Source: Terriglobia bacterium
GTDB taxonomy: Bacteria; Acidobacteriota; Terriglobia; 20CM-2-55-15
Assembly: GCA_963555775.3 (NCBI GenBank)
Contig: CAUVWY020000009.1
Coordinates: 940,598-980,597, forward strand
DNA: 40,000 bases
Reading direction: 5' to 3'
In this document: in pieces, positions 8,795-34,440 of the stretch
Layout of the letters: each line of letters opens with the position of its first letter
How positions within the stretch are numbered: position 1 is the stretch's first letter
Position numbers and translations under genes: made by a program
Notes under the pieces: model-generated
What the model was told of the DNA's origin: nothing
Database searches by the model: none
What the model saw: only the letters and a program-made list of their open reading frames with translations

Positions 8795-9634
8795 ATGAGT
8801 GTGGAAAAACGTAAAAAACTAAACCAACTCCAGCGTCTCCTGCCCGAAGGACTGCTGGCGGATACGCGCTGGCTGGAAAGCGAAGGATACTCCAGCGCTC
8901 TCCTAAGCCTTTATGCTGTTGGAGGTTGGCTTGAGCACCCTGCCCGCGGCGTCTACCGGCGGCCGGGCGGCATGCTGCTCTGGCAACATGTCGTGGTCTC
9001 CCTGCAAAGTTTGCTGACCTTGCCGGTTAACGTTGGCGGCCGGACGGCCTTGGAACTGGGCGGGTTATCTCATTACGTTTCTGCCCAGGGGCTCCGCGAG
9101 GCTCATCTCTACAGTCATCGGCGCCTGCCAGGTTGGGTCGGCAAGCTCGATCTCGAAGTCCGCTTCGTCGTTCATACCGGTAAAGGACTGTTTCGGACGG
9201 CGTTGGACAGTGCGCCCGGACAGTGGAACCCGGCTGACCAGAGTTTCAGCAGTGGAGAACTCCCGCGCACCCTGACCCGGACGAGCTGGGGCCAATGGAA
9301 CTGGCCTCTGATCCTGTCCACCCCGGAGCGGGCGATACTGGAATTCCTGCACGAAGTGCCTGAACGCGAGACGTTCGAGCAGGCGGACAAGTTCATGGAA
9401 GGTCTGCGCACTTTGAGCCCGCACCGGGTGCAGACGTTGCTCGAAGACTGCCGCAACATCAAAGTAAAACGGCTCTTCTTCTGGTTTGCGGAGCGCCACG
9501 AACCCGCCTGGCTCAAGAAGATCGACAGGGATCGAATCGACCTCGGAAAAGGAAAGCGCTTGATCGTGCGGGGTGGGAGACTTGATAAGCACTACCTCAT
9601 AACCGTTCCGGAGAGACTCGATGGCAGCGAGTGA
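8795..9634 (+). CDS. abiEi: Type IV toxin-antitoxin AbiEi family antitoxin/transcriptional regulator
   Basis: The N-terminus KLNQLQRLLPEGLLADTRWLESEGYSSALLSLYAVGGWLEHPARGVYRRPG matches the AbiEi N-terminal pattern as I recall it. It overlaps the following AbiEii gene by 14 nt. Confidence 0.8.
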   Translation: MSVEKRKKLNQLQRLLPEGLLADTRWLESEGYSSALLSLYAVGGWLEHPARGVYRRPGGMLLWQHVVVSLQSLLTLPVNVGGRTALELGGLSHYVSAQGLREAHLYSHRRLPGWVGKLDLEVRFVVHTGKGLFRTALDSAPGQWNPADQSFSSGELPRTLTRTSWGQWNWPLILSTPERAILEFLHEVPERETFEQADKFMEGLRTLSPHRVQTLLEDCRNIKVKRLFFWFAERHEPAWLKKIDRDRIDLGKGKRLIVRGGRLDKHYLITVPERLDGSE

Positions 9635-10594
9635 ACAATACCGCCGACAGGTGGCATTACTCGTGCAGGCCCTCCCCTTCGTCGCCGAGGAAAGTTGTTT
9701 CGCCCTGAAAGGTGGAACAGCGATCAACTTTTTCGTCCGTAATCTGCCGCGCCTGTCGGTCGATATCGACCTGACTTATGTGCCGGTGGCAGATCGGAGC
9801 CGCTCGCTATCCGATATCGACGCTGCAATGCGGCGGATCGCGAAGCGCATCGGCGAGGGACTGGAGGGAACACGGGTACATGAGAGTGTCCTGAAAACGG
9901 AACGGATCATCAACAAACTTGTCATCCAGACACCCTCAGCACAGGTGAAGATCGAGGTTACGCCAGTCTTGAGAGGTTGTGTGCAGGAGCCGGAGGTGCG
10001 CAGTGTTACTCCGCGCGTCGAGGAAGAGTTCGGCTATGCCGAAATCCAGACTGTCTCTTTCGCGGATCTCTATGCCGGTAAGATTGTTGCCGCTCTTGAC
10101 CGGCAGCATCCACGCGACCTCTTCGATGTGCGCGATCTCCTGGCGAATGAAGGTATCGCGGACAAACTACGGGATGCTTTCGTCGTCTATCTGCTGAGCC
10201 ATCATCGACCGATGGGGGAAGTGCTGGCGCCGCGGCCCGGAAGGACATCGCACAAGAGTTCGAGCGCGGCTTCAGGGGCATGACAGAAGTTTCCATAACG
10301 CTTGATGAGCTTCTCGACGCGCGAGAGCAACTCGTTGGCGAGATCATCGGCAAGATGCCGACAAACCATAAAGACCTGTTGATCTCGTTCAAGGCTGGTG
10401 AGCCGGACTGGTCGAAACTTGATGTGCCTGGGGCGAGAGACCTGCCTGCTGTCAGGTGGCGAATGCAGAATCTGGCCAAGCTGGATCACGTCCGACGGGA
10501 CGCTCTGATGGCCAATCTGAAGAGGGCGCTGAGTGTAGACCAGGATTATGGCGTAACCGCTCCTTTACGAAACTCCGCCACTGGAGCAGAGTAG
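9621..10594 (+). pseudogene. abiEii: AbiEii/AbiGii nucleotidyltransferase toxin, split by a 1-nt deletion-type frameshift near 10236-10240
   Basis: ORF 9621-10283 carries ALKGGTAINFF...LPRLSVDIDLTYVP. The frame of ORF 10280-10594 is open upstream and reads ...RKDIAQEFERGFRGMTEVSITLDELL. Adding one C to CCC (10236-10238) joins LAPRP to RKDIAQEF as a single AbiEii of about 324 aa. Confidence 0.8.
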
Positions 10595-11287: not shown

Positions 11288-11316
11288 GTCAAATATTCTC
11301 AAATTACTGTGATAAT
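11288..11316 (+). promoter_or_regulatory. Candidate extended -10 promoter for the modification operon
   Basis: TGTGATAAT at 11308-11316 has the form TGn + GATAAT. A weak -35-like GTCAAA lies 17 nt upstream. The site is in the AT-rich junction 48 nt before the first gene. Motif only. Confidence 0.25.
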
Positions 11317-11363
11317 CCCAGAACTTTAATTTAAGATAACTGCTGAATTTGTTCCTATGATCT

Positions 11364-12332
11364 GTGCACAGTTATGAGTGGATTGGGGACATCATAGTGC
11401 CGCTATTAATCATTAACTGTACGAACCGAAAACGCGTCAAAGCCAGCGCTGATCTTGACGCCAAGACTTTAAGTCCAGGGTCTCCGTACGAGGTGGCTCA
11501 AGAATGGCGAACCCGCGTATCTCAAACGGTCGGACGACATTGTGCCAACTATTTGTATTGCGGTCGTAGCTTCTCGGAAAGCGTTGTTGCCAGTAAGCGC
11601 CTGAATGCTGATCTCTGGATCGTGTCTGCGGGGATGGGATTAATTTCGGCTGACGACATGATCCCCGCTTACAACCTTTCTGTGTCCAACAAGATGTGCT
11701 CTCCAGGTGCACATATGAGCGGTTCCTGGGACCCCACACTTTGGTGGGAAGATGCCAATAAGATATGGTCACCGACGCGATCAATCAGCAAGTTGATTTC
11801 CGATAACTCGACGAGTCTTGCAATAGTTGGTTTATCGGGCCCTTACCTCGATATGGTTCACCACGATTTGCAGCAAATAACCCCGACCGAACGTGACAGG
11901 GTCCGCTTAATCGTGCATCCCGCCAATCGAAACGCAGTACCTGCGCTCGACCGCAACATCATGCCCTACGATGAAAGGCTTGATGGGCCTGACAGTTCGT
12001 TTCGTGGCACACGGAATGACTTTGTCGCCCGTGCCGCAAATCATTTCTGCTCCCTGTTGGTCAACAACTGTGACCGTTCCGTCAACTATCACCGAGATCT
12101 TGTGGCGCGAAGCTTGAGCACGCTTCAGCACACACAACGTATTCGAAGAGAACAACGAAATGACACCGAAATTGTCCAGTTAATCATTCGCAACTGGGCC
12201 GATGCGCACGGTCGATCGGGCCGTATGCTTAGAATTCTCAGGGACAAAGAGGCCGTCTCATGCGAACAGAACCGATTCAGGCGACTGTTCCATACAGCCG
12301 CAAACGAAATCACGATTCAGGAACAACAATGA
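11364..12332 (+). CDS. Unknown protein, first gene of the 7-deazaguanine module (DUF6884-like N-terminal pattern; possible DpdC-position protein)
   Basis: It is translationally coupled (ATGA) to the next gene. The N-terminal pattern LLIINCTNRK...ANYLYCGRSF...LWIVSAGMGLISADDMIPAYNLS resembles small conserved domains of the C-x-x-x-K / LY.G..F / SA..GL / P.Y type. The start is uncertain: GTG 11364 or GTG 11395. Confidence 0.55.
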   Translation: MHSYEWIGDIIVPLLIINCTNRKRVKASADLDAKTLSPGSPYEVAQEWRTRVSQTVGRHCANYLYCGRSFSESVVASKRLNADLWIVSAGMGLISADDMIPAYNLSVSNKMCSPGAHMSGSWDPTLWWEDANKIWSPTRSISKLISDNSTSLAIVGLSGPYLDMVHHDLQQITPTERDRVRLIVHPANRNAVPALDRNIMPYDERLDGPDSSFRGTRNDFVARAANHFCSLLVNNCDRSVNYHRDLVARSLSTLQHTQRIRREQRNDTEIVQLIIRNWADAHGRSGRMLRILRDKEAVSCEQNRFRRLFHTAANEITIQEQQ

Positions 12333-12725
12333 CGCAAGAAACACTGACCATCCGCGCTCTGAAAACAAGTCAAGGTGACGGCGCAGATGTCTATTCCTTT
12401 TTTGCGCCTGGGCGTGACATTGTGCGGATCGCCGATATTTCCCGCCTGGAACGCGACGAGGATGAAGACTTAAGGGGATTTCAGCGCAAAGACATCAAGA
12501 ACCACATCAAAAACATCGTCGAATATCTCAATCAAGGGAACGTCCTTTTTCCGAATGCGATCATCTTGGCATTCACACGAGAGATTCAGTTCAAACAATC
12601 GCGCGGGCCGAACCAGAGGAATCTGACTGATGTGGCGTCCATGGGAACATTAAGCATCCCAATCCGAGAAGAGGGCGACAGGGCCGCCTGGGTGGTCGAT
12701 GGTCAGCAACGGTCGCTTGCTCTAG

Positions 12726-14579
12726 ACCCTGAATAAGCGCGATTGAGGAAGTATCGATAGTGAAAAAGTAGCGGAAGTACCCGAAATGTCCCCGTCCCGT
12801 GCGAAAAAGAATTTGCAGAATCCTGACGGAAAAGGAGGCATTTCGGATGAACGATTATACGCGCAAGAACATGAGGAATCGCAAGCGGCGAATCGAGCGT
12901 CGGCTTGGGGACCGGCATTGGAGGGAACAGTCGGCGCCGATGTTGTCGGCGAGTAACATGCACTATGAGATGGGCAAGCGGACGCGGGGGACGGCGGTGG
13001 GCGGTCTTGGGGCGATGCATCGGGTGGCGCGGCGGACGGGTCTGATCGAGGCCATCGACGCGCGGGTGGATGTGCTGAAGCGGCATCTGCCGTATCACGA
13101 GTCGGATCACGTGTTGAACATCGCCTACAACGCGTTGACGGGAGGGACGTGTCTGGAAGACATCGAGTTGCGGCGCAACGACGAAGCATACCTGGATGCG
13201 CTGGGGGCGCAGCGGATACCGGACCCGACCACGGCGGGCGACTTTTGCCGGAGATTCGAGCCCGGCGACGTGGAGAACCTGATGGAGGCGGCGAATGAAG
13301 TGCGGCTGAATGTGTGGCGGCAGCAACCGGCCGGTTTTTTCGACGAGGCGGTGTTGGACGCGGATGGGACCCTGGCGCCGACCAGCGGGGAATGCAAGGA
13401 AGGGATGGATATCGCCTACGACGGGACATGGGGCTATCACCCGTTGTTGATTTCACTGGCGAACACCTCCGAGCCGTTATACCTGGTGAACCGGAGCGGC
13501 AACCGGCCCTCGCATGAAGGCGCGGCCCCGCGGTTCGATCAGGCGATCGGGTTGTGCCAGCGCGCCGGGTTCCATCGGATCCTGCTGCGCGGGGACACCG
13601 ACTTCAGCCAGACCCGGCATCTGGATGGATGGGACGGCCAGGGCGTGGACTTCATCTTCGGTATCGACGCGAGGGCGAACCTGGTGGCGCGGGCCGATGC
13701 GCTGGAGCCGGACTGCTGGGCAGTTCTGGAGCGTGAGGCCAGATACGAGGTGGCCACCCAGCCCCGCCAGCGTCCCGACAAGGTCAAGGAACGGATCGTT
13801 CGGGAACGCGGTTTCAAGAACGTTCGCTTGCGGGGCGAAGACGTGGCCGAGTTCGCCTACCGGCCCGGCGCCTGTAAGCGGGACTACCGCGTCGTGGTGG
13901 TGCGGAAGAATCTGTCGGAGGCCAAAGGGGAGTGGGTGTTGTTCGACAAGATCCGGTACTTCTTCTACATCACGAACCGTGCCGGTCCCGCCGACCGGAT
14001 CGTGAAGCGCGCGAATCAACGGTGCAATCAGGAGAATCTCATCGAGCAACTCAAGAACGGCGTCCGGGCCTTGAAAATGCCGGTGGGCGACCGGACCGGC
14101 AACTGGGCCTACATGGTGATGGCGTCGCTGGCCTGGACCCTGAAGGCGTGGTTTGCGTTGCTGCTTCCCGAAACCGGACGCTGGGCCCCGAAGTATCGGG
14201 CCGAGAAGCAGACCGTTCTACGCATGGAGTTCAAGACGTTCCTGAACGCCTTCATCCTCCTGCCGTGCCAACTCGTGCGTACCGGCCGGCGCATCGTCTT
14301 CCGGCTCATGGCCTGGAACCCGTGGCTGTCCGTCTTGTTCCGTGCCGTGGATGTGTTGCGTCGTCCCCTGCGATGCTGACCCGATCATGGATCTGAGCCC
14401 GGGCGGTCGAGGTCCCGGTTGCTGTCAACCCTTCAAACAGACACGGCGAGGCCCCCACTGGAACAGACGCAACTCGAACCGGAGGCCGGGACAAAACGAT
14501 CCCGGAACGGAAGGTTATGCCTCCAACTTTATGGCTGGGAACCGGCCGTTCGCCATCTGGTTATGCGCTTGTTTTGGGT
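12726..14579 (+). mobile_element. IS1380-family insertion sequence (about 1854 bp)
   Basis: It is flanked by a CTAG direct repeat (12722-12725 and 14580-14583). Imperfect terminal inverted repeats are ACCCTGAATAAGCGC... and ...GCGCTTGTTTTGGGT. It encodes a single transposase. Confidence 0.85.
12847..14379 (+). CDS. IS1380 family transposase
   Basis: ATG 12847 follows AAGGAGG (12832-12838). The sequence ...HLPYHESDHVLNIAYNALTGGTCLEDIELRRNDEAYLDALGAQRIPDPTTAGDFCRRF... matches IS1380-type transposases as I recall them. Confidence 0.9.
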   Translation: MNDYTRKNMRNRKRRIERRLGDRHWREQSAPMLSASNMHYEMGKRTRGTAVGGLGAMHRVARRTGLIEAIDARVDVLKRHLPYHESDHVLNIAYNALTGGTCLEDIELRRNDEAYLDALGAQRIPDPTTAGDFCRRFEPGDVENLMEAANEVRLNVWRQQPAGFFDEAVLDADGTLAPTSGECKEGMDIAYDGTWGYHPLLISLANTSEPLYLVNRSGNRPSHEGAAPRFDQAIGLCQRAGFHRILLRGDTDFSQTRHLDGWDGQGVDFIFGIDARANLVARADALEPDCWAVLEREARYEVATQPRQRPDKVKERIVRERGFKNVRLRGEDVAEFAYRPGACKRDYRVVVVRKNLSEAKGEWVLFDKIRYFFYITNRAGPADRIVKRANQRCNQENLIEQLKNGVRALKMPVGDRTGNWAYMVMASLAWTLKAWFALLLPETGRWAPKYRAEKQTVLRMEFKTFLNAFILLPCQLVRTGRRIVFRLMAWNPWLSVLFRAVDVLRRPLRC

Positions 14580-15310
14580 CTAGAGCAATCAGATAATTCC
14601 GGCATCCCGGTTCCTGTAGTCGGTTTCATTTGTGAGGATCTGCAAACACAGCGCGAGCAGTTCATCCTGGTAAACAAAGCGAGACCCTTGCCTCGCCGCC
14701 TTATCAACGAACTTCTTCCCGAAACCGGTGTCCTCCTTCCGCGCGATTTAGCTGTCAGAAAGATACCAAGCAAACTATGCCACCTTTTGAACCGCGACCC
14801 GCAGTCGCCGTTTTATCGATTGATTAAGCGAATGTCTGACGCAAACTAATCCGCTGCCGTTATCGTCGATTCTGCGATCATAGACATGATCAAACACAGC
14901 ATTAACAATCCACTCGGAGCGCTGTCCCCTTACAAAGGGACACGGAACGGCAACGCTGAAATCGATTCGATGTACCGCGTTACATGCGGTTTCTGGTCGG
15001 CAATGAGGGACGTTTTTGCGGACGCGTGGGGTAAAGACCCGCGCGAAAGCCGGTTGATGCACTCGGCTGGGATTCAAGCCGCAGGCGTACTGATGGACCG
15101 TATCACTGCGCGACTAGGATCTTATGACGAGAGCACGTCTAAGAAATTCAAGCGCGATTTAGAGTGCATGGCACCGTATTGCCATTGGACTAGTGGTACT
15201 TGGGAGGGCCTTGGTCTCGAATGGAACGAGATTCAGAGTATCCCGCGACACATTCGCGGATTGGCCGACGAACTGGTACGGATCTATAACCAGACTACTC
15301 GCTCTTGACT

Positions 15311-16585
15311 ATGGAGTTTATCTACGCAGACAGCCTGGACTACGTCGATCCCAATTTTGATTTTGAAACGGATTCAAGTAGCCCTGGACGCGAGCGCTAC
15401 TGGGACGACAAATTCGCTCATGAAATCCTGGAGTGTGCGCCGTATGACGGGATTTTAGTCTCGCGTGGGGTAGTTGGAGATCACCGATTCCCAGGAAAGT
15501 ATTCTGAGGCACAGGCACATAGGTTCAGACGTGTCGGTGCACGCGCATTTCTTCGCTTCAATGGCGAGAAAAACCGCGATAAGAAGATCTTCGGTGATTG
15601 CGGTGCGTTTTCGTACCACAAAATGGACAGCCCGCCGTATTCGCCAGAAGAGATCATCGAATTTTACGAAGATGGGAAGTTCACGCATGGTTGCTCGATA
15701 GACCACATTATCTTCGAGTTCAATCGCGACAACTCGGCTACTCCGTCAGAGAACGCCCGGAAGCGGTCGAGGATAACAATCGACTTTGCCGAAAGGTTTA
15801 TCGACGTGTGGCGGCAAAGGGGTTCTCGATTCGTGCCTATCGGTATCGTTCAGGGTTGGTCGCCCAAGAGCATGGGCGATGCTGCGGAATCCTTGGTGAA
15901 ACTTGGTTATGACTATCTCGCACTCGGAGGTATGGTCCCACTGAATGCCCGATCCATCCATCTTTGTCTTGCAGAAGTGCGTGCCAGAATTCCGAGCAAG
16001 GTCCGAATCCATCTTCTCGGTTTTGCCAAAGCGGAACAAATCACCGAATTCACAAACTACGGGATCACCAGTTTTGACTCGACCTCACCCTTACTCCGAG
16101 CCTTCAAAGATTCCAACCGCAATTACTATGTCAATAGTGGCGCTGGCGGCCTGGAATATTTTTACGCAATCCGCGTTCCACAGGCTCTTGAGAATGTTGG
16201 GGTTAAGCGCCTAGTAAGAGAAGGACTCGTCAAGCAAGATGAACTCGTTCGATTGGAGGCGTCCGCTCTTCGGACACTGCGCAGCTTCGACCGCGGTGAA
16301 AGCGATCTAGACGATGCGATCAATGCCTTGTTCCATTATCAGAGGAAACTTTCGACCGCGAAGGATGACAGCGCGAAAGTCGAACGAAGTATTGCGCAAT
16401 TGATGGAGCGCTATCGGAAATCTCTAGCAGCAGCACCATGGAAAAATTGCCCATGCCGGATCTGCAGGACTTCTGGAATTGAAGTGATCATCTTCAGAGC
16501 AAGCAACCGGAACAAGCGCCGCGGGATCCATAATCTGCAGTCGTTCTATAAGTTAGTGACCGAATTGGAGCGACCAGAAAAATGA
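15311..16585 (+). CDS. dpdA: DpdA-like DNA-guanine transglycosylase (tRNA-guanine transglycosylase superfamily)
   Basis: TGT-like elements are present: FGDCGAFSY, LALGGMVP, GITSFDSTSP (equivalent to the catalytic GxDxFD region) and a C-terminal zinc site CPCRIC...H. The context includes queC/D/E and DGQHR genes. An alternative TTG start at 15305 overlaps the upstream stop. Confidence 0.8.
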   Translation: MEFIYADSLDYVDPNFDFETDSSSPGRERYWDDKFAHEILECAPYDGILVSRGVVGDHRFPGKYSEAQAHRFRRVGARAFLRFNGEKNRDKKIFGDCGAFSYHKMDSPPYSPEEIIEFYEDGKFTHGCSIDHIIFEFNRDNSATPSENARKRSRITIDFAERFIDVWRQRGSRFVPIGIVQGWSPKSMGDAAESLVKLGYDYLALGGMVPLNARSIHLCLAEVRARIPSKVRIHLLGFAKAEQITEFTNYGITSFDSTSPLLRAFKDSNRNYYVNSGAGGLEYFYAIRVPQALENVGVKRLVREGLVKQDELVRLEASALRTLRSFDRGESDLDDAINALFHYQRKLSTAKDDSAKVERSIAQLMERYRKSLAAAPWKNCPCRICRTSGIEVIIFRASNRNKRRGIHNLQSFYKLVTELERPEK

Positions 16586-17670
16586 CCAAGATATTGCAAT
16601 TTATTGGGGTTATTGCGAACCAATCGAAACAGCACACCGTTGTTTCGTTTCCCGCGCTGGCAAACGAACTGCACAAAATTGCGGACATTCACCGGGCCGG
16701 TCGAAGAGTTAGTGGTGTGCTGGAGGGCTTCCAACGCCCACGGATTGCCAATCACATAAAGGAGATCCGGACTTATCTACTGCAACCGGACGCGATCCTT
16801 CCAAACTCGATTGTCATCGCATTTTCCGACGGGGTCACGGTAGAAAAGGTGGCGCGTCGTATCGCGATTGTCTCGGTTGACTGTGAAAAGGGTCCGCCTG
16901 GCCTCATCGTTGATGGCCAGCAGCGCCTACACGCACTGACGAGTTCGGGCCGTGATGATTTTGAAATTTTTGTGTCAGCATTTATTGCCAATAGTGAAGA
17001 CGAGTTGCGCGCGCAATTCATTCTGATAAACAACACCAGACCGCTGCCGAAATCGCTTATTTACGAGTTATTACCGACGGTGTCTGGCCTGCCTTCCTCG
17101 ATGAAAAGTCGGTCGTTTGCGTCCAAACTAGCCGGTCGATTGAATTTTGAAACAGAGTCGTCGCTCTTTGGGCAAATCTGCATGCATACCAGCCCTGAGG
17201 GGATCATTAAGGACACGTCGATACACAGGGTCATCATGAATTCCGCTAGTGATGGGGCGCTTAGAGAACTCAAACATAGTGAGGATTTCGAAGACCGAGC
17301 ATTCAACCTGATCAGCAATTTCTATCAGGCGGTGCAAAACAGCTTCCCACAAGCGTGGAGAAATCAAACTCCAAGAACCTCACGACTTGTCCACGGTGCT
17401 GGCATCATAGCGATGGGTTACGTTATGGAATACCTCTACGCCCGAGATTCCGCCTGTGAAATAGACGAATTCGAACGCGGCATATCACCCCTGATTGATT
17501 GCACTGCATGGACGGCCGGGAACTGGAACTTTCCAGACGGGGAGTGCCGACCGTGGAACGGTATTCAAAATGTCGGACGGGAGATCCTTAAGCTGACCGA
17601 TTATCTCCTGCGCGTTCTCAGAAACGCACCGGCATCAACGGCCGTTGTGCCCATGCGGGTCTTCAAGTGA
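16582..17670 (+). CDS. DGQHR-domain (DndB/DpdB-like) protein, paralog 2, apparently intact
   Basis: ATGA overlap with dpdA. Motifs: [39 protein letters not shown] and [20 protein letters not shown]. Confidence 0.85.
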
Positions 17671-18380
17671 GTCTTCCATCATCGAATAAGGCCCTGGTGC
17701 TTTTTTCCGGAGGTCAGGATTCCACCACGTGCCTGGCGTGGGCGTTAACCCGGTTCGACGATGTCTACACCATTGGGTTCAATTATGGTCAGCGGCACGC
17801 GGTCGAACTTGAGTGTCGCACCAGGATACTGGAGCAAATTCCGGCCGTTTCCGACTGGGTGGGTTCGATCAAGGGGGACCACTTGGCACGCCTTGATTTC
17901 CTCCCGGCACTCGGAGATTCCGCCTTAACATCGAAACGAAAGATAGAGATAGCGGCATCCGGTTTGCCGGCGACGTTCGTACCCGGGCGCAATATATTCT
18001 TCCTGACTGCCGCCGCTGCGCTTGCCTACCGGTTGGAGATTCGACACATTGTTGGGGGAATGTGCGAAACCGATTTTTCTGGTTATCCAGACTGTCGGGA
18101 TGACGCAATTAAGAGTCTTCAAGTAGCACTTAACATCGGGATGGAAAGCAGGTTCGTGCTTGAGACGCCCTTGATGTGGATAGACAAAGCCGAAACTTGG
18201 GAACTTGCCCACCAGATTGGTGGCGAACCACTGATCGACATCATTCGAAGAGATACGCACACGTGTTACTTAGGCGATCGGACAATAGAACATGAGTGGG
18301 GATTCGGATGCGCAACCTGTCCGGCATGCGACCTACGCCGCAATGGTTATTTAGCTTTTCGCAAAAGAACCTTAACCTGA
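17667..18380 (+). CDS. queC: 7-cyano-7-deazaguanine (preQ0) synthase QueC
   Basis: GTGA overlap with the upstream gene. It has the PP-loop [12 protein letters not shown] and the C-terminal zinc cluster CYLG...[11 protein letters not shown]. Confidence 0.9.
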
Positions 18381-18393
18381 GAGGTGATGAGCG

Positions 18394-19482
18394 TTGGATG
18401 CATCGTATTACCAAATAGCCTGCAGCCGATTCGAGGGCGCGCGCGCCGTGCGGATACTGCCCCAAACTCATCCATCTTACCGTTTGCACGGCCACAGCTT
18501 CGTCGCCAAGACCAGAAAGAAGTTGAAGGACAGCGACATCGCGGGGGGGAGCGCAATTCTGGACGAAGAGCAGTTGTTCTTGGAAAAACTCACAAGCCAG
18601 CTTAATTACCGCTACATCAATGAAATCATAGATATACCAACTGATGAGAACATCGCAAGATGGCTTTTTAAAGGAATAGATTCGGACAGGCTCGATCTCG
18701 CTGGCATTCAAAGCACCCCGAGCCAAGGAGTCGATCTCGATTCATCCGGGAACGCTCATCTTTGGCGAAAGTTCCGCTTCGAAGCCGCTCACCAGTTACC
18801 CAACGTTCGGCCAGAGCACAAGTGTGGCCGTATGCATGGTCATGGATTCGAAGTCATTATCCACGCTATCCAAGATATTTCGAGCCAGCAGATGGGCATG
18901 GACTACGACCTGATAGCAACCCACTGGGAATCTGTAAGAAAGCAGATCTCAAACAAATGCTTGAACGATATCCCTGGCCTCGAAAATCCTACCAGTGAGA
19001 CCATCGCACGTTGGATATGGGGGCAACTAAAGGACGAACTGCCAGATTTGTCGTGGGTCACCGTTTTCGAGACAGCCATGGCCGGATGTCATTTTGACGG
19101 TTCGAGCTACAACGTCTGGAAAGAATTTCACTTCGAATCCGCAGTTTCCCAGATGACACACGGAAACAGGTCCCTTTCCTTATTTGGGCATAGTTATAAG
19201 ATGCGCTTGCATTGTTCTGGTCCTTTCGATGAACACCTTGGATGGGCCATTGACTATGGAGATATCAAGGACGCGTTCGGCCCGGTGTACACGATATTAG
19301 ATCACCACAATCTGGATGAGATTGCAGGCTTGAATGCAGGATCTCCATTGGAGTTCCTGCAGTGGATTTGGACGAAGACATCATCGGAACTACCGATTCT
19401 GGTGCGGATCGATCTCTTCGAGACACCCGAGCGTGGTGTTGTCTGCACAGGGGGTTTGGATTCCCCGGCACTGCCAACGTAG
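18394..19482 (+). CDS. queD: Tri-modular 6-carboxytetrahydropterin synthase (QueD/PTPS) homolog
   Basis: TTG start lies 9 nt after GAGG. The product has three modules of about 115-120 aa. Module 2 (aa ~122-236) has the full RFEAAHQLP...HKCGRMHGHGF signature. Module 1 has THPSYRLHGHSF and module 3 has HFESA...LSLFGHSY; both lack the Cys. Each module ends with the ...IARWIW...V.V.ET-type strand pattern. Confidence 0.8.
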   Translation: MDASYYQIACSRFEGARAVRILPQTHPSYRLHGHSFVAKTRKKLKDSDIAGGSAILDEEQLFLEKLTSQLNYRYINEIIDIPTDENIARWLFKGIDSDRLDLAGIQSTPSQGVDLDSSGNAHLWRKFRFEAAHQLPNVRPEHKCGRMHGHGFEVIIHAIQDISSQQMGMDYDLIATHWESVRKQISNKCLNDIPGLENPTSETIARWIWGQLKDELPDLSWVTVFETAMAGCHFDGSSYNVWKEFHFESAVSQMTHGNRSLSLFGHSYKMRLHCSGPFDEHLGWAIDYGDIKDAFGPVYTILDHHNLDEIAGLNAGSPLEFLQWIWTKTSSELPILVRIDLFETPERGVVCTGGLDSPALPT

Positions 19483-19494
19483 CTGTGGCTCCAC

Positions 19495-20136
19495 ATGACA
19501 TATTCGGTAAAGGAAATATTCCCGACGTTACAGGGTGAAGGTGCGCAGTCAGGACGGGCAGCCGTGTTTTTAAGGTTTAGCGGTTGCAATCTATGGAGTG
19601 GTTTGGAGCGTGATCGTTCGACCGCAATCTGCAGGTTCTGTGATACGGATTTTGTGGGTGCTGATGGCCCCGGGGGCGGCAATTTTCCAACTGCAGAGTC
19701 CCTCGCGGTCCGGATCGAAAACTGCTGGGTAAGCCAGGCTGGGAAAGAAGGACCCCGATTTGTCGTATTTACAGGCGGAGAACCTGCCCTGCAGGTTGAT
19801 GACGGCTTGATTGCAAACCTTCATGCGCTTGAATTCGAAATTGCAATAGAGACGAATGGCACTTTATCCATACCAGATGCCGTTGATTGGGTGTGTGTCA
19901 GTCCAAAAGCCGGTGCGCAGTTGAAGATTGAGACGGGCAATGAACTAAAAGTTGTGTTCCCACAAAGAGGGATGAATATGGAGGCCCTGTCGGCTCTCGA
20001 TTTCCAACACTATTATGTTCAGCCAATGGATGGTCCCAGGATCGAACAAAACACCAAAGCGGCCATCGCTTATTGTCGTAAGCACCCGCAATGGCGCCTT
20101 TCAGTTCAGTCGCACAAATATCTAGGTATTCCCTGA
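19495..20136 (+). CDS. queE: 7-carboxy-7-deazaguanine synthase QueE (radical SAM)
   Basis: EIFPTLQGEGAQSGRAAVFLRFSGCNLWSGLERDRSTAICRFCDTDF gives a CX14CX2C cluster-binding motif. The length of 213 aa fits the short QueE type. Confidence 0.9.
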   Translation: MTYSVKEIFPTLQGEGAQSGRAAVFLRFSGCNLWSGLERDRSTAICRFCDTDFVGADGPGGGNFPTAESLAVRIENCWVSQAGKEGPRFVVFTGGEPALQVDDGLIANLHALEFEIAIETNGTLSIPDAVDWVCVSPKAGAQLKIETGNELKVVFPQRGMNMEALSALDFQHYYVQPMDGPRIEQNTKAAIAYCRKHPQWRLSVQSHKYLGIP

Positions 20137-20253
20137 TCGTCGGCTATGTGTTGGCGATCACGAGAAAGTGAAGTTTTTGGAACACGCGCCGGCCGATCAC
20201 TCAGTCGATTGCGTATTCCGGCGAAAGCCACCAGTGATTCCGAAGTGAAAGTG

Positions 20254-22630: not shown

Positions 22631-23145
22631 GCCACACCCCCATATTCCTTCCGAAAGGCGAGTCGCAGTTGCTCGACGCTACCGCGCTCATTCTGGAAGA
22701 CAAGCATTTCCGTGAGGCGCTCCAGTCCGTTGAATGTCAGGTTCATTGAACCGAGCAGCGAGTACCGGTCACCGACAATACCCTTGGCATGCAGTTCCGA
22801 ACGCTCATGGAAGATCACTGCTTCCGGTCTACCCACGGCCTGGAGTCCATCCAGGACCTGGCGATTACCCGCATCTGCTCGCGCCGCGATCACGACAGTC
22901 GTCCCTCGGTCGACAAGTTCTCGAAGCACGCGGCTTAGACGCACCTCCGCGCGAGGAAAGTCCGGGCAGAGAGACAGAAACGACCCGGTGCTGTTGTCGA
23001 GGACGGGGATGTCGCGCAGCCACGGCGACACGATCCAAAGGCAGCGGCTCGGCATCAAGAGTTCTGACGCGAAGATGAGTTGCAGCAATTCCTGAGCGGA
23101 CTTTCTTGCGTCAACCGCGGTTTGCAGGAACTGGCGCGTTGTCAC
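22627..23145 (-). CDS. Single-HKD phospholipase D-family nuclease (DpdK-like / Nuc-like)
   Basis: HAKGIVGDRYSLLGSMNLTFNG contains H-x-K-x4-D-x6-GSxN. The product is 172 aa and has 4-nt overlaps with both neighbouring genes. Confidence 0.8.
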   Translation of the reverse strand: MTTRQFLQTAVDARKSAQELLQLIFASELLMPSRCLWIVSPWLRDIPVLDNSTGSFLSLCPDFPRAEVRLSRVLRELVDRGTTVVIAARADAGNRQVLDGLQAVGRPEAVIFHERSELHAKGIVGDRYSLLGSMNLTFNGLERLTEMLVFQNERGSVEQLRLAFRKEYGGVA

Positions 23146-24181
23146 TGAAAGGCCTCTGGCAATTCAACTGCGGCCTTGAAGCGGCCGCCGTCACGGCGAA
23201 TCCCGGTCACGCGTGCGTGAACAAGAATGGCCTCTGAGTCAACCGGTTCTGCGCCGATTCGCAGCAATGCGTCCGCGAGTTGTCCGCCGTTGTCGGCAGC
23301 GGCGACAAGTTCGGCCGATCCATCTTCAAGTAGGACGCGCGCGAGTTCGTCGAACCAGTTGGCATTGGAAACAGCGATTTGCCGTACCGACCACGAGACT
23401 GCAGCTATTACGAGCAGTCGATCAGACTCTGGGAGTCGTTCAAATGGGTTCCATGCACGTAGCGATTCTGCTCGGATCTGTGCTCCACGAGGCCAGAACA
23501 TGCTGTATAGAACGCCGAAGCGCCACGCACGGCGTGCACTCTCGGAATCACCCGCCGGCGTCACGCCGAGCGCCCGCTCCAAAGTTGCATCCGAACTCTT
23601 GACTAGAGCAAAGACCCGAGCGTCAATTTCGACATTGAGTGCGACTTCCGCAGCCTGCCATTCGCGTGCTAGCGCCGCAGCAAAGCAGTCCATGTTTCCG
23701 CTCGTTCCAGATCCCAGCAAGCGTGTATTGACCGACACCATGAGCGTTGTGGTCGGCTGGATGTCACGGCGGGCGAGTTCACTCCGCAGGGCCGTTTGCG
23801 CACGGAGGCCCTCTCTGTGGGACGTTGCGACACGGACTGCACTGAACGCGTTCACCAAAGAGGAGTGTTCTGGTCTCGCCGAAGACACCATGTCCAGGAT
23901 GCGGGCGAGTTCGTCACCGATGGCCTCCAAATCAGAACCACTGAGCACGTCGTCTAATAGTCGGCAATATCTTCTCGGGTCCTCCACATACCGCGCAAAA
24001 AACTCCTCGACAAATCCGCCGCCACCGATCGTCGTCTCCGTGATCCACAACTCGTCCACGTGTTCACCCGCCTCTGCGTCTTGAGCATTCTCGCGATTGA
24101 CGTACGCGTTCAGATCCAATGCAAGAGCCCCTGGGTCCATTCGAGGACACAGATTGTGAGCTCCTTCGACGAGCGCAGATC

Positions 24182-24311
24182 CTAGCAGCCTGTCGGACTT
24201 TCGGCGTAAGTCCTTTGTTTTCAACAACGGCCCTTTTTAGCCCGAAACGGTAAACACAGTCATATGAATGACTTAGGTTTTTGATTCGGTGTTAGTCCGA
24301 CAGGCTGCTAG
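24182..24311. mobile_element. MITE-like element, copy 2, inserted inside the large helicase gene
   Basis: Same 130-bp sequence as 7205-7334, with CTAG at both ends. It supplies the premature stop (LAACRTNTESKT*) of ORF 24273-25685 and the false start MLKTKDLRRKSDRL of ORF 23142-24227. Confidence 0.85.
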
Positions 24312-25699
24312 CGTCGACTTGAATCGGGCTCGTAACCATACCTCCCAATTTTCATCAATCGGTGACCAGAGGACGTGCGCAGCCTGATGGAGTGCGTCTC
24401 TCGTTGCCGGCAAATCGAGCAAATCTGCGAGCTCCTGTAAGCGGCGCGGCAGATCTTGGTCATCCGTGTCGTTCAGGTCGGATCCGTTCCATTGAAGGAT
24501 CGTTTCCAGCACTTCTTTAATCGTCGTCCTGGATGTTTTTCGATTTACTGCGCCTTCAGCCGACTCCAGGTCAAGCTCTGTTCGCAAGGCTTCGGCCGTG
24601 ACCGTTGACAGATAGGTCTGCGACAGCCAATCTCGCTGAAACGTGTTTGATATACCATCCAAGGCCGGCGAGTCGCGAATGAGGTCTCGAAAGCGTGCCG
24701 TCCGGAGTCCGCGTACAAGACGACCATCGCCCATGCAGAGTTCGTGCAACCGTTCGGGATAGGCGAACTTGACCTGTATTCCATCGACATCTGCTGCGAA
24801 GCCCACTGCGGCAGGCTGCTCGCCTACCTCGGTGGCGTAGACAAATCGTAACGAATAGACAGTCTGTGGCTGCCGCCCACGGCCGACGGAAGCCGTTGCC
24901 CCCATTGAGAAGCGCCGAAGTTCGACTGGCAAACCCAATTGGTGCGTGTGCACCCACATTGCTAGAAGAACCGACTGCCAGACGGATCCGTGCGGAAGAT
25001 CGATCTCATGACCAACGGCTGTTGGAATGATCTCCGAGCGCCATTCAGGAAAGGAGTTCGACGACTGCTGGACATCAAGTGGCGTTTGGTCGACATCAAT
25101 CGCGAACGGACGAAATACGGGAATCTCGCGTTCCTGTCCATCGGGCTCGACGTAATGGGAGTACCCGAGGTCAAGACGGTCACCCGCCGGACAAAAGTCG
25201 TCGACAGAAACGCGATCTCCGTCCCCCGGGGCGATCCAATGGCGTTGACCGCCGGTGGACACGCCAAAGCGCCGAGAAACACGGCCCGGAGAAAACTCAC
25301 GTAGCGCCTGCGCGATCGGCATCAATTCGGTCCGCGGTTCGCCCCGGCCGTATGCTGGGAGGCGAACGGCGACATCCGGCACCTGTAAATCGCTGAAGAG
25401 CGTCCGAGGAAGGAACTCCGGTAGAGGCGCTCTTGGAGTGTGCGGCTCAAGTGCAGGGCTGGAGGCCCGTCTCCAGCCTCGCTCGAGTCGGCGGAGCAAA
25501 GTGGGGACCGCTTCCGTCATGAGAGCGCGAGGAGGTTCCCACATGACGGCACTGACCTCATCCGGATCGATAGCGAGCGAGCGAGCGATAAATCCGGCGA
25601 ACTCATCCCGAACAGAGCTTTCCTCAAGCAGCGTCGTCAAATACTGGACGTATAGCGCTTGACGCTCTCCCACATCGCGTGACACTTGGCCGTTCTTAA

Positions 25700-27643
25700 T
25701 CTGAAGTTCCCCCGCCAGTATGGACGTATCTAGCTGAGAAATAAGAACAAATCAGGATATGGAAATGTCGGCTACTGGGAACGTCTTGATCAGTTCGGCA
25801 GCGCGCCGTTGCAGAGGGGTGGGTTCGGTGAGGCGTTCGAGAGGCGGGCCGTCGGGATCGGTTTGGAGTCGGCAGGCGCACCGGCATTGGGTCGCCAACT
25901 CGGCGAGCAGGGTGGACATGCTGTGCAAGGGCAAACCGTCATCGGTCCGGCGGCGGTTCTTCTTGGCCTTCGCCGTGTCGGACGCCTGGGCGGGCAAGAC
26001 GGGATCGCGCGTGGCGCGTTGCAGGTCGAGTTCTTCGTCGTGGAACAGCAACGGCGCGAGCGCCTGGCGCAGGTGCCATTCGACGTAGTAGGCGAGCATG
26101 CACAGGAAGATATGGGCGCGCACACGCGACTCGGTGCGATGGTATATGGGCCGTATCCGCAAGTCCACGGTCTTCAGGGACCGAAAGGCGCGTTCGACGC
26201 GGGCGAGGTTCTTGTAGCCGCGGACCACTGCGGCGGCGTCCAGTCGCGTGGCCGGTTCGCTGGTGCGGACGACGTAGTACCCGTCCAGGGCCGCTTCGCG
26301 TTCAATGGCGGCGGTCTTGCGCTGGTAGGTGAAGCGGTGGTCTTCAATGACGGTTTCGAAGTGCTTGGCCATCTTGAAGCGGTTCTGCGCGCGCCCGACT
26401 TTCTCGGCAATGGCGGTCGCGGTCAGCGGCGTCCGGGTCCGCCGCGCCACCTGGCGCTGGATCTTGCCGAACGCCTCTTCGGTGGCCGTGAGCAGCGCGT
26501 CGCGTTTGCGCCGGCGGCGCTCGGCCAGTACCGGGTTGTGGCAGACCACGAGCCGCTCGTCCGGGTACGCCGCGACGGTGATTTCGGCCAGGTTCCGCGC
26601 ATCGAACAACGACGTTTGCACCGCGCCCTGCTCGAACAACCGGCGAATGTCGGTATGCCGCAACGCCGAAATCCAGCCTAACCCCGGGTGCTGTTTGAGA
26701 TGGTCGATCTGCGTCTGCGTCAGCATGCCGCGATCGCCCACCAGCACCACCCGTTCGAGACCGAAGCGATCGCGCAGTTTCGCCACCTGGTCCGGAACCG
26801 TGTTCGGATCGGCCGTGTTGCCCTCATAGGCCTGTATGGCCACCGGCCGCCCCGCCGCATCGGTCATCAACCCATAGACCACGATGGGCCGTCCCCGCTT
26901 GCCGTCGCGGCTGTAACCGAACTGGGCCAGGGCACAGGCGCGCCCTTCGTAATAGCTGCTGCTGACGTCATAGAGCACGTGCCCGCTGTCGGTCAGATGC
27001 CGCGCGGCCAGCCGCCGTTCAATCCGCTCCTGACGCTCCAGCACCCAGTCCATGGCGTCGTAGAGATCGTCCTCATCGGCGTTGTCGAGCGCCAATTCCT
27101 GAGCCAGCGTGGTGGTGTGCCACAGCCGCGTGGCGGCGAGCTTGGACGTGGGCGCCAGGAGGCGCTGGACCAGCATCGCCAGCACCAGGTCGCGCGGCCG
27201 GGACCGTTTGCGGTCGAGCACGGCCGGCAGGTCGAGACGGCGCAGCAGGTGCAGGATCAGTGCGACATGGCCGTGCGGCAGCGTACGGTCGATGGTGAAG
27301 GCCTCCTCGGGGTGGACCAGGGGTTGGTCCTTGAGCAGTTGGCGGAGGCGGGCGACTTTCGGCGCGGGCCAATGGGAGAGATTGGCGATGGTGCGTTTGT
27401 GGACGCGATGGCCTTCGCGCCAGCCTTCCCGCAGCAGGACGGCGGGTGGCGAGTTGCGGTTGGGAACAGTTTCAACGTACATGGGAACATAATGTACGTG
27501 AAATAGCTGATTAATGCAACACCACAATGAGCAAAAAGATTCTCATACATGGGAACATCTGGCGCTTTTCTGCCGAGGCATAATGCTCCCTAATTCAAGA
27601 CGTTAGGGTGCGTTTTCGACCAAAATGCCGGGGGAACTTCAGC
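25700..27643 (-). mobile_element. IS1634-family (IS4 superfamily) insertion sequence, about 1.94 kb
   Basis: Imperfect 18-bp inverted repeats are TCTGAAGTTCCCCCGCCA (25700-25717) and TGCCGGGGGAACTTCAGC (27626-27643). It is flanked by a TTAA (or TTAATCT) direct repeat at 25696 and 27644. It contains one transposase gene. Confidence 0.85.
25752..27482 (-). CDS. IS1634 family transposase
   Basis: MYVETVPNRNSPPAVLLREGWREGHRVHKRTIANLSHWP... is the characteristic N-terminus of IS1634-type transposases. I prefer the ATG at 27482 over the listed start at 27527. Confidence 0.9.
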   Translation of the reverse strand: MYVETVPNRNSPPAVLLREGWREGHRVHKRTIANLSHWPAPKVARLRQLLKDQPLVHPEEAFTIDRTLPHGHVALILHLLRRLDLPAVLDRKRSRPRDLVLAMLVQRLLAPTSKLAATRLWHTTTLAQELALDNADEDDLYDAMDWVLERQERIERRLAARHLTDSGHVLYDVSSSYYEGRACALAQFGYSRDGKRGRPIVVYGLMTDAAGRPVAIQAYEGNTADPNTVPDQVAKLRDRFGLERVVLVGDRGMLTQTQIDHLKQHPGLGWISALRHTDIRRLFEQGAVQTSLFDARNLAEITVAAYPDERLVVCHNPVLAERRRRKRDALLTATEEAFGKIQRQVARRTRTPLTATAIAEKVGRAQNRFKMAKHFETVIEDHRFTYQRKTAAIEREAALDGYYVVRTSEPATRLDAAAVVRGYKNLARVERAFRSLKTVDLRIRPIYHRTESRVRAHIFLCMLAYYVEWHLRQALAPLLFHDEELDLQRATRDPVLPAQASDTAKAKKNRRRTDDGLPLHSMSTLLAELATQCRCACRLQTDPDGPPLERLTEPTPLQRRAAELIKTFPVADISIS

Positions 27644-29819
27644 TTAATCTCCGCGGCAGGCTGTGAGAAATCGACCCAAGGATCCGGTGAATAGCTCACC
27701 GGTAACCGGCGCGCCAGCCAATCGCAGAGCACATATGTTGCTTGCATGCGAAGGACGGCCCTGTTCTTTAGCGGCAAGTGACGGGGCGGTAGATTTGGCG
27801 AGAACAACTGATCATAGCCTTGGTAGGCGCTTCGGTCGCGGCCGTAGTCGGATAGAGTGACCACGGTCCACGGCCTCATTTCTTGGCGGCGACCCGCGCG
27901 ACCCTTTCGTTGGAGGAACGCCGCGGCACTATGTGGCGCTTTATGTTGAAGCACGGCACCCACTTCAGGGTCATCGAACCCAACCTCGAGAGCCGCCGTG
28001 GCCACAACAATATCCGCATCCGCATCCACGCCGGTATCTTGTGAGCTTGTGCGTCCGACCCGCACACGACTTCTAGGCGCTAGTACATGCCCGATTTCCT
28101 CGACAAGAGCCCAGTTCTGTCCGCATTCGAGTCGCTCCCGGGCGTTCGGTAGCGTAGTCCCTCGAAGATTCGCCAGCGACCCGCCCACGCGAACCGGGTT
28201 CGGTCGACGGCCAAACCAATCCCACCCCTCGGCATCAAGGAGATTGTGATAAAGCCGGTTAATGACATCCAGATTGTCCGTGAACGTAAAGACGCGGCTG
28301 CCAGAGTAGTCGTCGTGTCGCGATCCCAGAATTCTTCGCAAGAGCATCAGCGATTGAATCGTCGTTGAAAGTAGACTCGTTCCCGAAGATGGATCGCCTC
28401 GTAGCGCAAGCATGTAGTCGGCGCCGTGCGCCTCGAACTCGTTGACCTCTGGCGCGACTTCTCCCACGTCTCCAGGGCCTAACCCTGTCAGATCCCCAAA
28501 GAATCGCGGCGCATCCGCAAGCGTGGCTGACAGGCCGACGAAATGCGGTCGTGCACCAGACGCGCGTCTCCAACGTCGCATTAAGAGAGCTACGTGAGCG
28601 CCATGCACACCTTCGTAGGCGTGAACTTCATCTATGAGTACAAAGTCCGGACGTCGCTCTGGCCTCACCCCGATGCCAAACAGTGGTGCGAATTGTCGCG
28701 ACGACAATCGCTGGTTCAGCATTTCGGTGGAGGTGAAGAGGATATCCGGGGGTTCAGCGAGCATCCGTTGCCGCGTGAGGCGGATCTCATCTGGTTCCAC
28801 CTGGTCACCGCAACGGGTATCAGTGCAGAGCAACCGTTCAAGGCCGATCTGGACGTCACCCTCCATCCATGCCATGTTCGCACCGCAACTCGGACACCGA
28901 ACAAATGGGCACTCATAAGCCGTCTGCCCTCCGAGCGACACGCGCCGCCATGCAGTACCGCGGCTTGGCGTCATGACGTTGCGGGAAGCGTGTGGAACAT
29001 CGCCGTAGAGTGCACCGATGACCAACCGCCGCCGCCCGCGGTCGACTAGTGCCGGAGTCGCCCGCCTTGCGTTCGCGAGAGCCTCGCGAAGTTGATCTTT
29101 TAGGAGTTCGTTTCGGGGATAGAGCGCGAGGCACTTTGTCCAATACGCTGCGGATAGCCGTTCTGCGATCGCAGCGTAGGCCGGAAGATAGAACGCGAGC
29201 GTCTTGCCGCTTCCTGTTCCCGCGGAGATCACCGTTCCAAGAGACCGGTCACTGCCCACCGCACGAAGAATTCGCTCTGTCGCGCGAGCTTGAAAGCGGG
29301 CCAGCGGCCGCTCTATGGCTGCGCCACCCTGTACGAGAGCATTGATGACGCTTTCCTGCAGCGCCGAGACATGAGTCTGTTGTCGCAGATCCTGCAAGAG
29401 GGTGGTTGGTGCGAGGTCCCGCCGTGGGTACAGTCGTGGCCGAACGAAAAACCGATAGTCGGCAACAAGATTCGGTGCGGTCCGCCAGGCAGCGTTCTTA
29501 GGGTCTGGAAATATTTGCTTCAGGCGCGCAAATAGCCGCACGGCTTCGGCCATGCGTGTTCGGTAACGCTGGGTGTCTGGCACTCTCCACAAAAGTTTGA
29601 GGTCGAGCAACGTCTCAATGAGACTCCAACCTGAATCGTGAACGCTTTCAATGCCCTTGCTCGCAAGCGCGGACAGATATTCATCCGCAAGTTGCTCTAT
29701 TTCAGTTTCTGAGAAAAAGCCGTCTATGAGCCCCCAGGAGAGAACGCCTGCCTCAGAGCGTTCAAGCTGGCCGAGGAATTCCAGGGCGTGTGCATCGTCA
29801 GCCATCGCGTGTCGCATTC

Positions 29820-33694: not shown

Positions 33695-33951
33695 TTACCT
33701 CATCCCCGTACGCACGAAGTGGCTGACTGGACGCAATGCGCGGCCACCTCGACCGAGCAACATGCGCTGCGGTGCATCAGACCGTGCTTCGAGCCGAAGT
33801 TCATCGTTGGCTTCGAGGGTCAAGAGCGCCGCCGAGAGACTGAGCGACACTTCAGCCGCGCGTTGGGCGCGCCACGGGCCCTCTGTGCCAATGTAGATGA
33901 GACACCTTCCCTAACGTTAATTAGTGAGCAGGGCGGGAAGGAAGATAACCT

Positions 33952-34440
33952 GTGTTGGTGATTAAACCAGAAGAGGAGAAAGAATCGCGGGCAACGGAAG
34001 GAGCCCGTAGGGCGACTGGAGTTGGGCGCGATTCGGCCGATGGGAATGGTGCCGGTCCGGATCCGGAGGTCGCCGATAAGGCGACGCGTCGACGATTCAG
34101 CGCGGAGTATAAGCGCCGGATCGTACGAGATGCCGACCGGTGTACGAAGCCCGGTGAGGTGGGCGCGTTGTTACGCCGTGAAGGGGTGTACTCATCGAGC
34201 CTGAGCACGTGGCGTCGGCAACTCGATGCCGGGGAGTTGGCCGGCGTCGGATCGGTCAAACGTGGACCGAAGGCGCAGCCGATAGACCCGCGGGATAAGC
34301 GGATTGCGGAGTTGGAACGGGAGACTCGGCGTCTGGAGGCGAGACTCGGGCAAGCCGAGACGATAATCGCCATTCAAAAAAAAGTTGCGACGCTATTAGG
34401 AATTCCGCTGAATACGATCCAGGACAAGGAGAACGGTTGA
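33952..34440 (+). CDS. IS3 family transposase OrfA (HTH)
   Basis: GTG start follows GGAAGGAAG. The sequence includes RRRFSAEYKRRIVRDA and a leucine-zipper-like C-terminus (ELERETRRLEARLGQAETIIAIQKK). Confidence 0.85.
   Translation: MLVIKPEEEKESRATEGARRATGVGRDSADGNGAGPDPEVADKATRRRFSAEYKRRIVRDADRCTKPGEVGALLRREGVYSSSLSTWRRQLDAGELAGVGSVKRGPKAQPIDPRDKRIAELERETRRLEARLGQAETIIAIQKKVATLLGIPLNTIQDKENG
34376..34384 (+). promoter_or_regulatory. Probable programmed -1 ribosomal frameshift site (A8G) of the IS3 element
   Basis: The run AAAAAAAAG lies near the end of orfA. orfB is in the -1 frame and is open upstream of its listed ATG. Confidence 0.6.

Follow-up and report, generated by a model that had tools for sequence, protein, structure and literature searches.

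A Trimodular QueD Protein from a Terriglobia Bacterium with Catalytic Residues Divided Between Two of Its Three Modules

The open reading frame (ORF) at positions 18394..19482 (+) of the window, by which is meant the whole 40,000-nucleotide stretch of Terriglobia bacterium DNA that was analysed, encodes a protein of 362 aa plus stop codon in which three PTPS/QueD modules succeed one another in a single chain; both the ORF and its modular composition were confirmed as real. On the evidence presented below, the gene, here termed queD3, very probably codes for a functional trimodular QueD, which would serve as a 6-carboxytetrahydropterin (CPH4) synthase conducting the QueD step of preQ0 synthesis. 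A fuller model, in which one chain forms a ring, two chains form a dimer, and the active site is split between module 2 of one chain and module 3 of its partner, is regarded as likely at a lower level of assurance, ring closure and register being the elements of it that we infer.

The queD3 gene and its start codon

The ORF begins 13 nt past the stop codon of queC with a TTG, the first start codon downstream of an in-frame stop. Direct reading of the DNA placed a Shine-Dalgarno-like sequence (AGAGGTGA; 18380..18387, +) 6 nt before this TTG and overlapping the queC stop codon, while alignment indicated that the N-terminus of the protein is collinear with those of its homologs, and the same TTG start was recorded in the 89%-identical ortholog at a second Terriglobia locus (L001). 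Taken together, the position relative to the in-frame stop, the spacing of AGAGGTGA, the collinear homologs and the TTG of L001 render the start credible. A repeat search of the ORF (18394-19482) detected no direct DNA repeats, and pairwise identity among the three modules was only 19-26%, both of which indicate that the triplication is ancient and not an assembly duplication.

Three PTPS modules in one chain

A Pfam scan matched PF01242 (PTPS) to three stretches of the protein for a total of 170.6 bits, and when the thirds were scanned singly each exceeded the 22.4-bit cut-off of that profile: module 1 (aa 1-118; 18394..18747, +) with 30.8 bits (E = 3e-7), module 2 (aa 119-237; 18748..19104, +) with 88.3 bits (E = 5e-25), and module 3 (aa 238-362; 19105..19479, +) with 60.9 bits (E = 1.5e-16). 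TIGR03367, the NCBIfam QueD equivalog, returned 129 bits versus a cut-off of 89.25, and membership of the PTPS/QueD family (PF01242, COG0720) is placed above threshold. A preliminary description, made from the DNA alone, had proposed three such modules in one 362-aa chain, with detection of a single PTPS domain by profile search as the outcome that would count against it; the three matches bore the proposal out.

The diagnostic features of QueD were recovered from the protein as a whole and not from any one module. Cx3HGH together with an N-terminal Zn-binding His was found in module 2 only and is missing from modules 1 and 3, the Asp70-His71 dyad was found in module 3 only, and association with queC and queE was recorded both in the window and in 65 of 80 species-representative loci, with queC as the gene immediately before and queE as the gene immediately after. 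At 362 aa and three modules, the chain departs from the canonical unimodular QueD subunit of ~120 aa. Three other identities considered for the protein were ruled out: QueD2 by the Cx3HGH (not Cx4HGH) of module 2 and a weak match to 7V0F, a bimodular T-fold by the presence of three modules and poor whole-chain superposition, and PTPS-II by motif and architecture.

Residues retained and lost in each module

Residues were compared with E. coli QueD as numbering reference, checked on an alignment to 4NTM, in which His16, His31 and His33 bind Zn and Cys27 is the nucleophile, the further reference sites being Asp70-His71, Glu86 (in NPTSE) and Glu110. Module 1, a degenerate PTPS module as judged by PF01242 and alignment, has Arg17 in place of the Zn-ligand His16 and Ser28 in place of Cys27, retains H32-G-H34 (HPS28YRLH32GH34SF), carries Asn71-Tyr72 at the position of Asp70-His71, and possesses a PTDEN motif.

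Module 2, identified as the Zn/Cys catalytic module by PF01242, alignment and conservation, presents both the Zn histidines and the Cys in the motif FEAAH133...HKC144GRMH148GH150GF, plus Glu202 (in NPTSE) and Glu226. Direct reading and alignment located the zinc triad and nucleophile codons within 18790..18843 (+), namely His133 at 18790-18792, Cys144 at 18823-18825, His148 at 18835-18837 and His150 at 18841-18843. HMMER alignments to 2OBA and 4NTM placed Ser186-Asn187 where the Asp-His dyad should be, so that the earlier statement that the middle module alone is catalytically complete does not hold.

Module 3, designated the helper module on the basis of PF01242, alignment and conservation, has lost the Zn site (Val251 and Phe264, with His266 alone retained; LF264GH266SY) and has Ser260 in place of the Cys. 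Alignments to 2OBA and 4NTM confirmed that it retains Asp303-His304, the only conserved Asp-His dyad of the protein, encoded by GAT CAC at 19300..19305 (+) as established by direct reading and alignment. The same division was apparent when HMMER was presented with E. coli QueD, which it split, residues 5-38 and 74-120 aligning to module 2 and residues 30-77 (including LDHHYLN) aligning best to module 3. The motifs quoted in the preliminary description (AAHQLP...HKCGRMHGHGF, HPSYRLHGHSF, and an FGH without Cys in module 3) were found by alignment to be correct.

Conservation across trimodular homologs

Conservation was assessed in two samples, 78 mutually distant trimodular homologs and 120 close ones. 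Among the 78, the catalytic residues of module 2 are almost invariant (H133 in 75, C144 in 77, H148 and H150 in 76 each, E202 and E226 in all 78), and the dyad of module 3 is equally so (D303 in 77, H304 in 76). These six residues of module 2 and the two of module 3 make up a composite set that is complete in 74/78 of the distant homologs and in all of the close ones (120/120). Where QueD has its Asp-His dyad, module 2 varies, only 8/78 of the distant and 32/120 of the close homologs reading 'DH'. A full Zn triad occurs in neither module 1 nor module 3 of any homolog in either sample, an outcome that upholds the earlier assignment of the Zn/Cys centre to the middle module alone.

Module 1 exhibits a mixed pattern. 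Arg17 is present in 71/78 and the residues of HGH in 63-65/78, Tyr72 (the counterpart of His71) in 47/78 with His at that position in only 4/78, and the pterin-anchoring Glu (E85), universal in module 2 only, in just 17/78; in the close clade, module 1 carries PTDEN with the anchoring Glu. Comparison with the 89%-identical L001 ortholog, based on small counts (8-20 synonymous substitutions per module), yielded dN/dS values of 0.22-0.37 across the three modules and 0.29 overall, a pattern that would fit constraint acting also on the two modules without a Zn site.

These profiles bear directly on a simpler reading, namely that module 2 is catalytically self-sufficient, modules 1 and 3 serving only to fill out the structure of the ring. 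Module 2 is indeed alone in possessing the Zn triad, the Cys and both Glu residues, and neither a Cys nor a full Zn triad occurs in modules 1 and 3. However, module 2 has Ser-Asn at the Asp70-His71 position, and that site is not conserved in the family, whereas the retention of Asp303-His304 in 77/78 and 76/78 homologs is hard to explain for a filler, and His71'' of the E. coli enzyme is described as a catalytic base needed for turnover. Self-sufficiency of module 2 is consequently considered decidedly improbable. The related proposal in the preliminary description that two of the modules are structural may stand for module 1, which does appear to be mainly so, and fails for module 3 with its near-invariant dyad.

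Distribution and genomic neighbourhood of the family

Matches to the queD3 protein numbered 2268 when 5.8 billion proteins were searched, and the best 120 of these are nearly all 360-370 aa in length with full query coverage and ~50% identity; where these best 120 bear names, they are merely called '6-carboxytetrahydropterin synthase'. When one genome per species was scanned, at least 573 species genomes were found to contain a relative, collinear homologs being ~364 aa long. The best 80 of these relatives all span residues 1-362 and reside mostly in Gammaproteobacteria (Chromatiaceae, Competibacteraceae, methanotrophs and Thiothrix), with Betaproteobacteria, Rhodospirillales, Lentisphaeria, Acidobacteriota, Nitrospinaceae and Planctomycetota scattered among them, and the closest relative among the species genomes belongs to a Terriglobia MAG (89% identity). 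Carriers with complete genomes include Thiorhodovibrio and Thiohalocapsa PB-PSB1. When representatives at 50% identity were searched exhaustively with HMMER, 102 clusters were recovered at E <= 1e-30, the majority with lengths of 320-375 aa. At the 80 genome loci, tblastn with E. coli QueD as query matched exactly three segments within the gene and a single additional PTPS fragment in its vicinity.

It is this survey that decides whether the ORF might be an artefact or a pseudogene, arising through assembly error, recent tandem fusion of queD genes, or decay in an island ridden with IS elements. The surrounding dpd island, with its IS1634 and IS1380 insertions and split genes, lends such a reading some initial plausibility. 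Against it stand the absence of an internal DNA repeat and the low identity of the modules (vide supra), the occurrence of collinear homologs, 330-375 aa long, across at least 573 species genomes and ~100 clusters at 50% identity, the fact that the catalytic residues are all intact, and the dN/dS of 0.29 relative to the L001 ortholog. For practical purposes the family survey refutes this reading, which is extremely improbable; tandemly duplicated genes misassembled into one ORF, the alternative outcome named in the preliminary description, are not what full-length homologs in hundreds of genomes represent.

The possibility that the gene is a dpd-specific QueD was likewise rejected, DpdA/B being present within 10 kb of the trimodular gene in only 8/81 loci and the viral contigs lacking a trimodular form: matches in these contigs were of unimodular size only. 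The link to dpdA neighbourhoods drawn in the preliminary description is correspondingly weak, the arrangement in 65/80 loci being plain queC-queD3-queE. Trimodular QueD is thus a widespread cellular form, and neither a dpd speciality nor an artefact.

A further group of relatives comprises PTPS proteins of ~230 aa with two modules (P0231, P0233, P0237, P0242, P0247, P0252 and P0254). In these ~230-aa proteins the modules are arranged in the order [M3-like][M2-like], the Cys-less Asp-His module scoring best with the module 3 profile and the Cx3HGH module with the module 2 profile, and there is no equivalent of module 1. As judged from these profile scores, they could possibly be bimodular QueD proteins with the same division of labour.

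The same loci have a bearing on whether the chemistry itself might be altered, such that the protein yields a different pterin product or sustains a second activity or ligand binding in the pockets of modules 1 and 3. COG0720 is known for both functional promiscuity and mis-annotation. Module 1, furthermore, retains Arg17 and HGH, to which the close clade adds PTDEN and its anchoring Glu, a conservation that is without explanation. However, the Cx3HGH motif and the TIGR03367 score are of QueD type. In 65/80 loci the gene stands where queD is expected, flanked by queC and queE, and a single further PTPS fragment was met in the surroundings. Module 2 is also the only module in which the Glu that anchors the pterin is universal. 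Altered chemistry is accordingly judged unlikely, and the assignment of the gene as a functional QueD is preferred.

Predicted structure

An AlphaFold2 model of the QueD3 monomer, generated from a 61-sequence alignment, was obtained with a mean pLDDT of 90.1 and a pTM of 0.90. The modelled chain comprises three modules, each of bbaabb topology, which are joined by beta-hairpins of 2-4 residues. Single modules of the model superpose on QueD chains with target TM values of 0.90-0.94. No solved structure with three modules was found, the best PDB chains each covering one module (TMq ~0.3), and bimodular uricases fitted the whole chain poorly (TMq 0.3, rmsd ~15 A). Closure of a 12-stranded ring is what we infer from the high pTM taken together with the topology and the hairpins that link the modules.

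A proposed split active site across two chains

T-fold enzymes consist, according to published descriptions, of two rings placed head-to-head with active sites across the rings. In E. coli QueD, Zn is described as bound by His16, His31 and His33, the nucleophile is Cys27, and His71'', the catalytic base required for turnover, is contributed by the opposite protomer.

In the proposed mechanism, the three modules of one chain would form the 12-stranded T-fold ring normally built by three QueD subunits, and two such chains would stack head-to-head in the manner of the two trimers of the QueD hexamer. This reasoning supports the covalent pseudo-trimer of the preliminary description, in which two chains rebuild the hexamer. 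Each site would bridge the rings, one subunit providing the three Zn-His residues, the Cys and two Glu residues, and the opposite ring providing Asp-His, and the sole complete combination predicted is that of module 2 of one chain with Asp303-His304 of module 3 of its partner. If one chain equals one ring, module 3 could not complete module 2 in cis and a second chain would be needed; the retention of the dyad in module 3 and not in module 2, together with its donation by the opposite ring, would mean that module 3 acts in trans.

In a D3-like hexamer, the Zn-binding subunit and the Asp-His donor are related by a two-fold axis and sites therefore occur in reciprocal pairs. Three registers are possible for a symmetric dimer of trimodular chains, in which module 2 would face its own counterpart (module 2'), module 1' or module 3'. 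The first was rejected because it needs an Asp-His in module 2, where it is not conserved, and the second because it needs His at Tyr72, where it occurs in only 4/78 homologs. On these residue patterns, module 2 opposite module 3' would be the only workable register of the three. What has decayed, in module 3 the Zn/Cys centre and in module 2 the Asp-His, would then belong to one and the same dead site, which makes the pattern of loss self-consistent. The two-fold axis of the dimer would pass through the module 1:module 1' pair, and of the six sites two would be live and four dead; module 1 would be mostly structural and module 3 a catalytic partner in trans. In the minority of homologs with Asp-His in module 2, other registers may work.

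Against the split-site model stands the retention in module 1 of HGH (63-65/78) and Arg17 (71/78), which it leaves unexplained. There is a slim prospect that the degenerate pockets, those of the module 1:module 1' pair (with Arg17, HGH and, among close relatives, the PTDEN motif and its Glu) and of the dead module 3 site, have been retained for a new job beyond scaffolding, such as holding the labile CPH4 or binding H2NTP/GTP. If that were true, the single-chain ring would be an asymmetric platform for flux regulation or, within a QueC-QueD3-QueE complex, for direct hand-over of CPH4 to QueE, and it would represent a third, trimodular T-fold class with functionally distinct modules.

The dpd island and the remainder of the window

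The gene order in the window is dpdA (15305..16585, +; NF041059, 533 bits), dpdB (16582..17670, +; NF041060, 368 bits), queC (7-cyano-7-deazaguanine synthase; 17667..18380, +; TIGR00364, 197 bits), queD3, and, 12 nt downstream, queE (7-carboxy-7-deazaguanine synthase of the Cx14CxxC type; 19495..20136, +; TIGR04508, 334.7 bits), with a dpdD-K set on the opposite strand. Its position between queC and queE places queD3 in the queD slot of a preQ0 operon feeding a 7-deazaguanine DNA-modification island, and the preQ0 so formed would here supply DNA modification by DpdA/DpdB. No GTP cyclohydrolase I (folE/folE2) was detected in the subset of window ORFs scanned, so that the H2NTP source is presumably a gene elsewhere.

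Profiles for DpdA, B, D, K, J, I, H, G, F and E were matched in the window, several of the genes being split or interrupted. The dpdJ gene lies in three pieces within 23142-29817 (-), located at 27595-29817 (-), 24273-25685 (-) and 23142-24227 (-) and covering DpdJ profile positions 1-696, 702-1157 and 1145-1482, respectively, and an IS1634-family transposase gene (25752-27527) separates the first two of these. The restriction side of the island looks inactivated. Further along, the DpdE match (38838-39929, -) covers profile positions 717-1047 only, DpdF (36760-38841, -) spans 19-670 of the 813 profile positions, the next ORF after it having 207 aa and no family (36194-36817, -), and DpdG (35460-36197, -) covers positions 1-235 of 290; a 324-aa ORF at 34374-35348 (-) also has no family. 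The shortened dpd genes of window 33921-39929 (-) may reflect frameshifts or truncations. Since the dpd island has been damaged here by IS elements, the preQ0 operon of this window may be under relaxed need.

An IS1380-family transposase gene (12799-14379) lies between a probable dpdC and dpdA. Window positions 11301-12725 and 14579-20137 align to contiguous positions 4769-11744 of L001, from which 12726-14578 is absent, and the latter segment is therefore an insertion specific to this genome. The 322-aa ORF at 11364-12332 (+), which has a weak YaaA/DUF328-type match (28 bits) and no Pfam match, is conserved upstream of dpdA in L001 and is possibly dpdC, responsible for the step from preQ0 to ADG. 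Synteny with L001 ends immediately after queE (L001 11744-21086 versus window 20137 onward); L001 has dpdA-dpdB-queC-queD3-queE and no DpdD or DpdK within 9 kb downstream, which indicates that the modification half of the island is not always linked to the restriction half. Next to the island, a gene for an AbiEi-type antitoxin (8795-9634, +) is followed by an overlapping 220-aa ORF (9621-10283) without an NCBIfam match, and by their arrangement the two (8795-10283) may constitute an AbiE-like toxin-antitoxin pair.

Comparison with known T-fold enzymes

The modules of QueD3 share fold and family with E. coli QueD (4NTK, 4NTM, 4NTN and 3QN0) and with 2OBA of P. aeruginosa. Module 2 superposes on them with an rmsd of 1.2-1.9 A, is 42-44% identical to E. 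coli QueD and 46% identical to 2OBA (rmsd 1.3 A), and has in common with QueD both Cx3HGH and the equivalents of His16, Glu86 and Glu110, the operon partners queC and queE also being the same. By way of contrast, QueD itself consists of ~120-aa chains assembled as a homohexamer with six identical sites, whereas QueD3 has three diverged modules per chain, catalytic residues split between modules 2 and 3, and a predicted maximum of two complete sites per pair of chains.

Mammalian PTPS (1GTQ, 3I2B) is a unimodular homohexamer, 27-28% identical, with Cx5HGH and 6-pyruvoyl-tetrahydropterin as its product. Its catalytic triad is formed between subunits, with the Cys from one trimer and the Asp-His from the other, and it is this arrangement that underlies the mechanism proposed for QueD3. 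In the rat enzyme, the triad reportedly comprises Cys A42, Asp B88 and His B89, subunits A and B belonging to different trimers, while the Glu that anchors the pterin is reported to come from subunit A.

QueD2 of A. baumannii (7V0F) catalyses the same reaction as a PTPS-family variant with altered oligomer architecture, and the role of its His68'' as a metal ligand from the opposite ring demonstrates that inter-ring residues can complete a site. QueD2 proteins are recognised by Cx4HGH along with either a C-terminal extension or an extra domain at the N-terminus. Unlike QueD3, the A. baumannii enzyme is an octamer of single-module chains that bear a C-terminal extension and carry Cx4HGH, and Foldseek matched QueD3 to it only weakly (E ~1e-3). 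Tandem T-fold modules in one chain, as in QueD3, are found in GTP cyclohydrolase IB/FolE2, E. coli-type QueF and urate oxidase, and bimodular QueF likewise displays a division of labour between modules; however, with two modules each, these bimodular T-folds differ from QueD3 in family and in the geometry of the ring.

Published T-fold classifications recognise unimodular and bimodular classes only. Literature searches located no description of a trimodular T-fold or multi-module QueD, an earlier mention being possible, and there is no mention of trimodular QueD in the QueD/QueD2 sequence-network study, the COG0720 review or the 2026 deazapurine mining preprint. The suggestion in the preliminary description that such a protein had not been described is consistent with these searches. 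The trimodular layout is apparently both widespread and undescribed.

Significance

Annotation pipelines label the trimodular proteins plain '6-carboxytetrahydropterin synthase', and classification by the motifs of a single module would misjudge them, in that module 2 seems to lack the triad and module 3 seems dead. In many Gammaproteobacteria and some Acidobacteriota, it is the trimodular form that is encoded at the queD site between queC and queE, an architecture that leaves the job of the pathway unchanged. As T-fold enzymes are the textbook case of active sites at subunit interfaces, trimodular QueD would represent a natural experiment on such sites, in which internal duplication and subfunctionalisation would have turned a symmetric homo-oligomer into an asymmetric pseudo-oligomer, with four of six sites having decayed in a complementary manner.
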